11,552 bases of DNA from a virus. The translations under genes were made by a program, and so were the position numbers. The notes beneath the pieces are model-generated. The model was given only the letters and a program-made list of their open reading frames with translations. It was not told where the DNA came from and did no database searches. The stretch lies in the UHGV virus genome UHGV-1585826; one strand, 5' to 3'. Shown in pieces: positions 5,501 through 8,500 of the stretch (positions are counted from its first letter, which is position 1; each line of letters starts with the position of its first letter).

Positions 5501-8500
5501 TATGCTGGAGGGGAAAATTCCGGCAGCGAAACTGGCTGATATGATGGACAGTAAGCCGGGGTTACGGAGCATGTCGGATACCTGGAAACTGCTCCGTACG
5601 CTTTCTGCATTGCAGATTGATAAAGCATCCGGCTATCGTGTCAGGTCCGGTGTTTATTCGTTTGTCGGGGGAAAACGTTACGATCCGCCGCAAATGATGT
5701 ATTCGCTTCGTGATAGCAAGGGGCGCGACCTCTTTTTCTCGGAAAGCCGGGATGAGTTACTGAAAAAGGCGAAAGCATATTTCGATGAACAAGGCTCCAG
5801 AGAAAGGGAAACGCCAGCAACCTCTGCTGATGACAGAATAACCTTTGACGTGTACCGGCATAAGGCCAGTGGCGACATTTTTATCGGTTATGGCAAAAAC
5901 AGGCAGAAACTGAAGGGCGGTTTTGAGTCTGCCCGTGATGCACATGATTATGTGCGCACACATCGTGATGAGCTGGTTAATCAGGTGAAGGCGCTGCGTG
6001 AAGTCTCGCGTGAGGAGCAGCGTAACGCCACCAACCGCGATCGTACCGGACCAGAACGCCGCAAGGGGGATGTTTCGCCGGAGCAGTTCAGTGATGCGTT
6101 TGGTTTTCGTGGTGTGCAGTTTGGTAATTATGTGGAAAGTCCGCGTCGTCAGGCTGATTTGAACCGGGCTTATGACTCGCTGCATGACCTGGCTGACGTG
6201 CTGAACGTGCCGACAAAAGCGCTTTCTCTGAACGGTCGTCTTGGGCTTGCTTTTGGTGCCCGTGGTAAGGGTAAGGCGGCGGCACACTATGAGCCGGGTG
6301 AGGTGGCAATCAACCTGACAAAAGGTAACGGACCGGGGGCGCTGGCCCACGAATGGTTCCATTCACTGGATAATTATTTTGGTCGTTATGATGTTTCCAC
6401 TGACGGGAAGATCACGTCAGGTGGCGACTATATGACGGAAGCACAGCGTGCCGGGCGCGTATTTAAAGACGGCAGGTATGTTGATGCGGAATATCCGGTA
6501 CGTCAGGAGGTTTACGACGCGTTTAAAGGCGTGATGAAAGCCATTAACAGCAGTGACATGTTGCGTCGTTCTGAACGCCTGGATGGCGTTCGTTCAAAAC
6601 CGTACTGGTCAACGGATGTTGAAATGGCGGCGCGAGCCTTTGAGCGTTATGTTCAGGATAAAGCGCGTATGGCTGGCGTGGAGAATGATTATCTGGTCAA
6701 TATCCGTAAGGCGGATGACCATGGACAGCTGGACACCTACGCTTATCCGACGAATGCAGAACTGGATGGCGGTATTCGTGAGGCATTCGATCACTTGTTC
6801 CGAACACTGAAAACCCGTGAGACGGACAAGGGAGTTGAGTTTTATTCCCGTAAGGGCGTGACCCGCACACCTGAAGGCAATCTGATTTCGGATGTTAACC
6901 GCAGTGCGGAAGCCAAAGGCAGTCCGGTCCCGCAGGTTGAAGCTGTTGCCCGTGGCGTGATTAGTGGCATTAAGGACAGTGACCTGAAGGTCCGCGTGGT
7001 GAAGTCACAGAAAGAGGCTGAAGCACTGGCGGGTGAATCATTCGACGGTTACGGCAAGGTGCACGCGTTCTATCGTCCGGATAAACGTGAAATTGTCCTG
7101 GTGGCGGATAACATCCCTGACGGGCGGACCGTTCGCGAGAAGTTACGTCACGAGATTATTCACCATGCAATGGAGCATGTAGTCACGCCAGCGGAATATC
7201 AGACGATTATTAAGACCGTGCTGAAAACCCGTGACAGTGATAACGCCACCATCCGTGAAGTCTGGCGTAAGGTTGATGCGTCTTATGGTAAGGAATCACC
7301 GGAAGTGCAGGCGGGTGAATTTCTGGCGCATATGGCAGAGAAGCAGCCGATTAAATTCGTGGCGGCATGGGAGCGTGTTGTTGCCCTGGTCAAAGGGGTA
7401 CTGCGTCGTACGGGGTTACTGAAGCCGACGGAACTGAACGATATCAGACTTGTTCGCGAAACTATTCGCACGTTAGGCCAGCGTGTGCGGGAAGGTTACA
7501 CGCCGCGTGAGGATGGCGCGGACGCATCGTCTCAGTACTCCCGTAGCGGTAAGCCTGATCCGTTCAAAGTGCCGGAAGGTGAGGGCGAGCGTTATCGTGA
7601 TGACCTTGCCAGAATGATGAAGTCTCTGCGCTCAACGGATTTAACGGTAAACATCGGGCGTACGCCGCCGGTATTGCGTCACCTTGGCGCACCAGATTTG
7701 CCGCTGGTTATCTCCCGCGACACTGTGCGTAAGGCCACCAATGGTGTGAAACATGTGGTGCCGATGGATGTTATCGAGAGACTACCGGAACTGATGCACG
7801 ATCCGGATGCAATTTACCGTTCCGCGACAGAAAGAAACGCGGTTGTGATGCTGCTTGATGCCGTGGATAAAAATGGTGATCCGGTGGTGTCAGCGGTACA
7901 CATGAAGGCTGTCCGGTCGCGCCTGGAAATCAACAAGGTGGCATCTGTTTACGGTACGGAAAACGGGAAAAAACTGAAGAGTATGGAAATGACCGGTTTA
8001 ACGTTGTACCGGAGAGAAAAATTAAGCCGCGATAACCTTCTGCACAGAGGGCTCCAATTGCCCAAAGGGGAACATTCTTATCGCGGCTCTGTTGATAAAA
8101 TACTCTATCCTGAAGATATTCGCAAGGGGCCGTATTACTCCCGCACCAGCAGTCTGACGCCGGAAGAGACAATTGCATCCCGTTTTGTTCGCCAGATGCA
8201 GGATAAATTCCAGGTGCTGAAGGCGGTGCAGGAGAATATCCGTAAAACTGGCGGAAAAATAGATGACAGCAATATCGCCTATATGGCTGAAGAACTCTTC
8301 CACGGGAAGGCGGAAAACGACCTGAACGTAATGAAGGAGCGCTACGTTCAGCCGCTGGCCAAATTGCTGGCGGACTACAAAATTGCGCAGGCCGATCTGG
8401 ATGAGTACCTCTACGCCCGTCACGCGCCGGAACGTAACGCGCATATTGCGAAAATCAACCCGAAAATGCCGGACGGCGGTTCGGGGATGACCAACGCGGA

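Follow-up and report, generated by a model that had tools for sequence, protein, structure and literature searches.

The stretch analysed here, an 11,552-nt piece of the UHGV virus genome UHGV-1585826 (hereafter the window), is dominated by a single giant open reading frame (ORF; 2529-10880, on the plus strand, as are all features encoded within it), whose product of 2,783 amino acids (aa) is a giant polyvalent protein. This protein is 100 % identical to a prophage protein of E. coli O104:H4 (WP_000331660.1, labelled 'LPD38 domain-containing protein'), is matched over its full length by PHROG 616, and is the orthologue of ORF80/ECs1242 of Sp5 and of gp47 of phi24B. At the DNA level, the window shares 93-97 % identity with the late region of short-tailed Shiga toxin (Stx)-converting phages (the group of 933W, Sakai Sp5/VT2, phage 86, and phi24B), and positions 2342-11552 match the Stx2 prophage of E. 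coli O104:H4 at 100 % identity. A Pfam scan of the giant protein found four domains, namely LPD5 (residues 1047-1190, 5667-6098; PF18799, E 4.5e-43), LPD1, MuF_C, and LPD38 (residues 2466-2671, 9924-10541; PF18857, E 3e-46), all four being characteristic of 'polyvalent proteins' (Iyer et al. 2017, PMC5512222). The polyvalent architecture that an initial annotation had read from the letters alone is borne out by these four domains sharing one ORF, and more than one metallopeptidase (MPTase) per polypeptide has already been described for such proteins. Here we are concerned with the second HExxH motif of this protein and with the predicted zincin-like (gluzincin-type) metallopeptidase module that carries it (residues ~1459-1664, 6903-7520, as delimited by family alignment and model), hereafter domain 2.

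The giant protein contains exactly two HExxH motifs. The second, HEIIH (residues 1541-1545, 7149-7163), in which H1541 and H1545 are predicted zinc ligands and E1542 is the predicted general base, opens the longer string HEIIHHAMEH (residues 1541-1550, nt 7149-7178), located just where the initial annotation had put it; the context quoted there, GYGKVHAFYRPDKREIVLVADNIPDGRTVREKLRHEIIHHAMEH, is found verbatim, and the spacing given as 'about 270 residues' after the first motif measures 267. On neither strand does a competing ORF of at least 60 aa overlap 6960-7180. His accounts for 1.4 % of the residues of the giant protein, for which the composition-based expectation is 0.039 HExxH per protein; in 5,000 composition-preserving shuffles, the probability of at least one motif was 0.037 and that of at least two was 0.0002. 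Two chance occurrences are indeed improbable, as had been argued, and conservation of the motif across 161 sequences (see below) is the stronger argument. One could still suppose that the second HExxH arose by chance within a non-enzymatic linker, given that residues 1440-1740 have no significant match in Pfam, NCBIfam, PADLOC, or PDB sequences. However, the shuffling result, the conservation, a confidently predicted fold, and its zincin neighbours already refute this explanation, to which we assign next to no probability.

An exhaustive HMMER search with residues 1455-1670 as the query against 1.84 billion cluster representatives matched domain 2 to 378 protein clusters at E<=1e-3 and to 100 at E<=1e-10, with the matches nearly always covering query positions ~5-210. 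A word-indexed homologue search retrieved near-identical fragments only, also when the alignment served as query. Within relatives of 1.5-6 thousand aa the location of domain 2 varies widely, and stand-alone forms of 211-272 aa exist. For instance, giant proteins of Vibrio phages carry it at 33 % identity (tblastn), and proteins of ~500 aa annotated as 'zeta toxin family' begin with it (~1-210), followed by a Zeta_toxin domain (~236-425). These zincin and Zeta_toxin fusions (such as the genes at 5992-7506 of plasmid locus L003 and 5836-7377 of L005) reside on conjugative or mobilisable plasmids of Pseudomonas, Xanthomonas, and Burkholderia, near genes for topoisomerase III, ArdC-like proteins, and methylases. 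Furthermore, an ArdC-type polyvalent protein of P. fragi starts with domain 2 (hmmsearch E 2e-49), continuing with ArdC-N and a separate PF18818 domain, and one stand-alone copy (locus L009) clusters with genes for an LPD7 protein, ArdC, and an EAL protein. Phages and conjugative elements alike thus carry domain 2 within proteins of several domains, encoded beside virion or transfer genes. Pfam scans of the segment, both as a single sequence and per member, gave faint M76, DEK_C, and ABATE noise only, NCBIfam gave only an insignificant Hvo_1808 match over the region, and searching PDB sequences, whether with the single sequence or with the profile, yielded no zincin and nothing significant. 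Residues ~1459-1664 are an autonomous domain in their own right, which lies outside every Pfam and NCBIfam model and was previously unannotated in the giant protein. Since no database model exists, the family currently goes unseen when phage polyvalent proteins or the 'zeta toxin family' proteins of plasmids are annotated; with at least 378 clusters left uncovered by Pfam and NCBIfam, a profile would improve the annotation of many mobile-element proteins.

Among the 158-159 relatives that were fetched, 27 have at least two matched stretches, tandem copies included. The tandem zincin copies (in relatives including P0017, P0018, P0025, P0028, P0046, and P0062) fall into two sequence subtypes, one with RHE[IV]LGHYGLNTF and a C-terminal 'QQTFPxxDD' tail, the other with RHE[IV]hxHHGL, which is the type found in the window; certain second copies have diverged further, to HEAVGH or HEMIGH. 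As far as sequences go, the coexistence of two subtypes suggests a paired or heterodimeric function.

To assess conservation, we aligned the query with 160 homologous segments that are cluster representatives at 50 % identity (n=161). E1542 and H1545 are kept in all 161 sequences and H1541 in 159, and a third invariant position is E1597 (161/161), 52 residues past H1545. This Glu lies in the motif AGEFLAHMAE (residues 1595-1604, 7311-7340; consensus AEExxAxxAE), which falls on predicted helix 137-151 of the segment and ends in E1604, a candidate second-shell residue (149/161); A1595, A1600, and A1603 are each kept in more than 130 of the 161. Conserved as well are W1579 (133/161) and Y1586 (7284-7286; 151/161), the latter terminating predicted helix 119-132. 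Taken at the level of sequence, HExxH followed by a Glu 52 residues past its second His is the gluzincin signature. The initial annotation had also counted an extra His as part of the site, in the manner of ImmA/IrrE-like peptidases, and here it fails: the column of H1546 holds Y, H, or K, that of E1549 is mostly gap, and that of H1550 is mostly N. Because neither H1546 nor H1550 is conserved, the third metal ligand is probably a Glu, namely E1597. Conservation, the structural model, and the standard gluzincin mechanism together predict that H1541, H1545, and E1597 hold the zinc and that E1542 activates the water. In the active site of anthrax lethal factor (LF) and of PPEP-1, HExxH is followed by a conserved Tyr and then by a Glu ligand on a later helix; by analogy with such LF/PPEP-type zincins, Y1586 may be a transition-state stabiliser.

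Ahead of the active-site helix lies a beta-hairpin, GKVHAFYRPDKREIVLVADN (residues 1509-1528, 7053-7112), with strands at segment positions 59-62 and 67-71. Its pattern G-x-Y-x-P … L-x-A-x-N is kept in the family, in which Y1515, A1526, and N1528 are conserved, and according to pairwise and profile alignments the hairpin is common to domain 1 (the module around the first HExxH, discussed below), to ArdC-type zincins, and to the zincin of the N4 virion RNA polymerase (vRNAP). Within the Glu helix motif, the window protein has G1596 (7314-7316) at the position occupied by the first Glu of AEE in 133 of the 161 sequences, E1597 being intact; this AGE/TAE variant is common to close relatives (P0014, P0016, and others of the Stx/enterobacterial clade).

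An AlphaFold2 model of the domain 2 segment, built with a 30-sequence alignment (A1), reached a mean predicted local distance difference test (pLDDT) of 82 and a predicted template modelling score (pTM) of 0.79, with pLDDT >90 over segment residues 10-150 and <50 at the C-terminal end. In segment numbering, the chain runs through helix 13-24, strand 33-37, helix 40-47, and strands 59-62 and 67-71 into helix 78-96, which, as in zincins, bears the HExxH and comes after three strands; helices 100-115 and 119-132 follow, then helix 137-151 with E1597 and E1604, and finally two further helices. The model resembles solved zincin structures, gluzincins among them. Its structural similarity scores are highest for the N-domain of Certhrax (8.3) and that of LF (7.8), followed by TTHA0227 (7.4), M32 carboxypeptidase (7.2), PPEP-3 (6.9), PPEP-2 (6.8), Spartan (6.8), projannalysin (6.6), the catalytic domain of LF (6.6), MATCAP (6.3), selecase (6.2), PprI/IrrE (5.9), ArdC (5.8), and Wss1 (5.6). 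A Foldseek search of the PDB with the model returned nothing at E<=1e-3, its top ranks being MATCAP, LF, and selecase, and in BFVD the same fold was found within many viral 'large polyvalent' proteins (TMq 0.55-0.64), along with weak matches to phage IrrE-N-like proteins. Judged from the model, the nearest structural relatives of domain 2 appear to be the LF-type zincins and the minigluzincins rather than ImmA/IrrE. Of the likeness to ImmA/IrrE that the initial annotation had proposed, the helix-borne HExxH and a structural similarity to PprI/IrrE are there, the extra His and a match to the M78 profile are not. Its wider claim of a metallohydrolase had been staked on a fold of this kind and on conserved His and Glu residues; the structure predicted for the region is a zincin metallohydrolase fold, and the residues in question are the near-invariant ones listed above. 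Conservation and model together make it very probable that domain 2 truly has a zincin fold and that its metal site is conserved.

A zincin fold need not imply a peptidase. Domain 2 could be a metal-dependent enzyme with a different substrate, as are the RNase YbeY and the HExxH oxygenases, or it could serve mainly in structure or binding, in the way of the N-domains of LF and Certhrax, which head the similarity ranking. Yet the HExxH and the downstream Glu are invariant, or nearly so in the case of H1541, across 161 divergent sequences, and this invariance points to selection on the metal and water site of a gluzincin. The N-domain of LF, moreover, is a non-catalytic zincin-fold domain that lacks HExxH, YbeY has a different motif with three His ligands, and the great majority of zincins with HExxH and a Glu ligand are peptidases. 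We consider a non-peptidase role improbable, and the sequence conservation and the model together argue that domain 2 is likely an active peptidase.

How does domain 2 relate to families already described? Diverse MPTase domains are the most frequent component of the polyvalent proteins of phages and plasmids, and domain 2 belongs among them. Polyvalent-protein MPTases fall into 12 clades, and 36 % of polyvalent proteins contain one to five MPTase domains, ~8 % of those having more than one; the core of these MPTases consists of an N-terminal helix, a three-stranded sheet, the HExxH helix, a variable insert, and the Glu helix (PMC5512222). Domain 2 shares both this order of secondary structure and the setting, giant phage or conjugative-element proteins built of many domains. 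It is an additional zincin MPTase of polyvalent proteins, a concept that stays within the framework of Iyer et al. 2017, and is most simply viewed as one of the 12 published clades, one without a public profile. The main text of that study does not name Stx phages (PMC5512222). Pfam models just one polyvalent MPTase clade, PF18818 (MPTase-PolyVal, the ArdC C-terminal type, PDB 6sna), which we rejected as the home of domain 2: it gave no match at E<=10 for the query and none in 30 members, and hhalign of domain 2 against it gave a probability of 3 %. In the P. fragi protein the two are neighbouring but distinct modules, and in L009 each has a gene of its own.

Membership in M78 (ImmA/IrrE) was likewise rejected, as there is no Pfam M78 match and the closest structural neighbours lie outside M78. 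ImmA/IrrE and the minigluzincins are, like domain 2, small zincins with a helix-borne HExxH and a Glu as third ligand, whereas domain 2, at ~200 aa, exceeds them in size and has a helix and a strand at its N-terminus as well as a helical extension at its C-terminus. Neither does domain 2 belong to the M34/ATLF profile, given the absence of a Pfam ATLF match and of LF or PPEP from the profile search of PDB sequences. LF-like M34 zincins differ from it in their spacings, domain 2 having two extra inserted helices, and LF-type M34 zincins are part of a secreted toxin, whereas domain 2 is intracellular and borne by phages or plasmids. It was also to LF that HHpred connected the MPTase of N4 vRNAP (PMC5512222). 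Comparison of domain 2 with that MPTase gave partial similarity only: hhalign reached 49 %, over the half with strands and HExxH only, and hmmsearch was not significant.

The first HExxH, HEWFH (from residue 1274, 6348-6362), belongs to a first zincin module, domain 1 (residues ~1172-1430, 6042-6818), which we delimited by CLCA_X, LPD1, and invariant residues. The NCBIfam model CLCA_X covers residues 1172-1427 with 154 bits, below its cut-off of 260, and Pfam LPD1 spans residues 1351-1430. H1253, H1274, E1275, H1278, D1281, E1365, and E1372 are invariant in 21 of 21 relatives. By virtue of H1253 and D1281, domain 1 fits the description of the 'phage-type' MPTase, with a His ending strand 2 and an Asp three residues past HExxH (PMC5512222). 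First zincin and LPD1 co-occur in every relative examined, and the invariant E1365 and E1372, within the LPD1 stretch WSTDVEMAARAFERY, could furnish the Glu helix that is absent from the HEWFH region. On sequence grounds, Pfam LPD1 is probably the C-terminal part of the first zincin rather than an independent domain.

Two HExxH motifs had been taken to mean either two distinct hydrolase modules or a duplicated domain, and an alignment of the two regions had been suggested for telling them apart. Separate modules they are, and the second did not arise by recent duplication of the first. The hhalign probability between the domain 1 and domain 2 profiles is 12 %, BLASTP aligns them at E = 0.02 over 39 residues only (GKGKAAAHYEPGEVAINL…LAHEWFH versus GYGKVHAFYRPDKREIVL…LRHEIIH), and the two are distributed independently, the first zincin being present in only 28-31 of the 158-159 fetched relatives. 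Because the alignments are so limited, domains 1 and 2 are, from their sequences, ancient paralogues rather than recent duplicates, having only the beta-hairpin and the HExxH helix in common: both share the hairpin-plus-LxHExxH core, from which domain 1 departs by H1253 and D1281.

Downstream of domain 2, a spacer (7521-7745) leads to MuF_C (residues 1740-1829, 7746-8015; PF18819, E 1.5e-17), which is a PBECR-type (barnase/EndoU/colicin-like) predicted RNase domain (Iyer et al. 2017, PMC5512222). The spacer consists of a variable polar linker (~1665-1690) and then a conserved helix, DPFKVPEGEGERYRDDLARMMKS (residues ~1688-1739, 7590-7745), defined by an alignment of 19 relatives. In 19 proteins, comprising 18 relatives and the window protein, MuF_C stands behind domain 2, always at a gap of 66-97 aa, and the helix, with its consensus 'DPFK-x-P-x-x-E-x-E-x-Y-R…', precedes MuF_C in 19 of 19. 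From this alignment, the Pfam MuF_C model appears to miss an N-terminal extension formed by the DPFKVPEGEGERYRDDLARMMKS helix. A possible site of processing is the DPFK boundary. The phi24B preprint labels MuF_C a 'metallopeptidase domain' and bases on it an idea of peptidoglycan degradation (bioRxiv 10.64898/2026.04.10.717836); the predicted metallopeptidase modules of the giant protein lie elsewhere, at residues ~1172-1430 and ~1459-1664, and not in MuF_C.

What might such a peptidase do in a phage particle? The Sp5 orthologue ORF80/ECs1242 (2,793 aa) is essential for infectious phage particles, and its knockout yields DNA-filled heads that lack tail-fibre labelling (PMC5155283). Mass spectrometry of purified phi24B virions showed the orthologue gp47 (2,811 aa) to be abundant, yet gp47 is not visible in the cryo-electron microscopy reconstruction of capsid and tail; it was proposed as an encapsidated ejection protein that forms a trans-periplasmic conduit (bioRxiv 10.64898/2026.04.10.717836). 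Being essential, abundant in the virion, and unseen in the reconstruction fits an encapsidated and ejected protein. Neither the Sp5 nor the phi24B paper mentions the HExxH motifs (PMC5155283; bioRxiv 10.64898/2026.04.10.717836). Both motif-bearing peptides were detected in phi24B particles by mass spectrometry, HEIIHHAMEHVVTPAEYQTIIK with 34 peptide-spectrum matches (PSMs) and GNGPGALAHEWFHSLDNYFGR with 7. By gel slice from the top, the gp47 PSMs were 2188, 1686, 1187, 1260, 663, 447, 478, 427, 374, 136, and 70, then lower, whereas the 80-kDa portal is strongest in slice 5 and slice 11 contains the maximum of the 45-kDa capsid protein (bioRxiv 10.64898/2026.04.10.717836). Hence, 62 % of the gp47 signal lies above the portal slice, and its maximum is in the top slice. 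This indicates that gp47 in the virion is mostly very large and probably uncut, as is the N4 vRNAP in its virion (PMC5512222), so that any processing would be expected after ejection.

We propose that the giant protein would travel largely uncut in the head and be ejected together with the DNA, whereupon the domain 2 peptidase would cleave, in cis or in trans, exposed linkers between the domains of its own polypeptide. These cuts would release or activate neighbouring modules, notably the MuF_C/PBECR RNase-like domain, and host proteins may serve as additional substrates. The placing of MuF_C at a fixed distance behind a variable polar linker favours cleavage of the protein's own linkers. Several points weigh on the other side. 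The gp47 gel profile tails into lower slices, which may reflect partial processing, degradation, or smearing; the tail-assembly-like phenotype of the ORF80 knockout (Mondal et al.) is left unexplained by a peptidase; we infer the H/H/E geometry of the metal site from the topology of the model; and of the 159 proteins searched just 19 pair MuF_C with domain 2, so that releasing MuF_C cannot be what the family does in general. Nor can self-processing of a giant protein be its sole role, in view of the stand-alone and Zeta-toxin-fused forms. That self-processing after ejection is the main job of domain 2 we put forward tentatively, with slightly more doubt than belief, and the statement as a whole, of an active zincin peptidase module that processes the giant protein after ejection, we hold in even balance.

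The forms just mentioned also speak for the main competing explanation, in which the active zincin peptidase is an ejected effector that cleaves a host defence or housekeeping protein and not its own polypeptide, in parallel to the proposal for ArdC-type proteases and to the cleavage of repressors by IrrE/ImmA. Stand-alone domains and two-domain Zeta_toxin fusions on conjugative plasmids leave little to process, domain 2 adjoins genes for ArdC, topoisomerase III, and methylases in plasmid transfer regions, ArdC and IrrE are among its structural neighbours, and host-directed proteolysis is among the options raised by Iyer et al. (PMC5512222). However, we found no link to a specific defence system, in PADLOC or otherwise, and the tandem copies and the embedding of domain 2 between modules of giant proteins fit processing at least equally well. 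We regard a purely host-directed role as possible, though rather doubtful. Far less credible is a third role, following from the phi24B preprint, whereby the metallopeptidase would cut the peptide cross-links of peptidoglycan and thereby aid the passage of the ejected protein across the envelope. It would suit the proposed trans-periplasmic conduit of gp47, and peptidoglycan-targeting peptidases do occur in some polyvalent proteins (PMC5512222). Still, we consider it very improbable, because it was built on MuF_C being called a metallopeptidase and because the domain 2 family associates with modules acting in the cytoplasm.

Returning to self-processing, a more specific and frankly speculative version, which we think unlikely, is that domain 2, the linker, and MuF_C/PBECR constitute a protease-gated RNase cassette, idle in the packed head and active after ejection. 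A cut at or near 'DPFK' would then free the RNase against host or defence RNAs in the first minutes of infection. If so, the essentiality of ORF80 would partly reflect RNase release, and the family would perform an equivalent 'release' for Zeta kinases and for ArdC modules on conjugative plasmids.

Shell proteins aside, the giant protein ranks among the most abundant in phi24B virions; it is an essential, medically relevant component of Stx phages, and its published function labels amount to a weak AAA+ guess and the mislabelled 'MuF-C metallopeptidase'. Polyvalent-protein biology already predicts a domain of this kind; what is gained are concrete predicted catalytic residues and a family missing from domain databases. 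The residues named here (E1275/E1542, H1274/H1278, H1541/H1545, and E1597) can be directly tested by point mutations.

As for the remainder of the giant protein, its N-terminal ~1,040 residues (residues 1-1044, 2529-5660) have no Pfam match above threshold. Sub-threshold Gly-zipper matches occur at residues ~406-433 (Pfam, E 0.3-0.7), and residues ~440-1010, in which Glu, Pro, Gln, and Ala abound, have the look of a low-complexity or disordered region. The COG1483/AAA+ label of Mondal et al. was not reproduced, our Pfam scan of the giant protein containing no P-loop family.

Turning to the DNA outside the giant gene, the window has the appearance of a deletion derivative or of a chimera introduced by assembly, with a junction at ~2342-2351 within the first 2528 nt. 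Positions 1-2351 match the portal gene of Stx phages and the gene next to it (98.9 % to Shigella phage POCJ13), and from 2342, just upstream of the giant gene, the match to the O104:H4 prophage begins; in intact phages, ~20 kb separates the two, a stretch that contains the capsid, scaffold, and tail genes. A chimeric ORF (1345-2460) spans the junction; its residues 1-335 match PHROG 479 and its residues 314-371 match the C-terminus of PHROG 601, an Sp5 ORF79-like gene, fused in frame. The first ORF (21-1187, plus strand) is truncated and has a match to positions 274-594 of the Pfam profile P22_portal (E 4e-71). From phenotype and position, Mondal et al. 2016 took Sp5 ORF60 to be the portal, reporting no conserved domain; the P22_portal match and the phi24B structure (gp72) agree with them. 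Downstream of the giant gene lies a small ORF (11004-11279, plus strand; 91 aa, PHROG 3658), hypothetical in the O104:H4 prophage, after which comes a DUF551 gene on the opposite strand.

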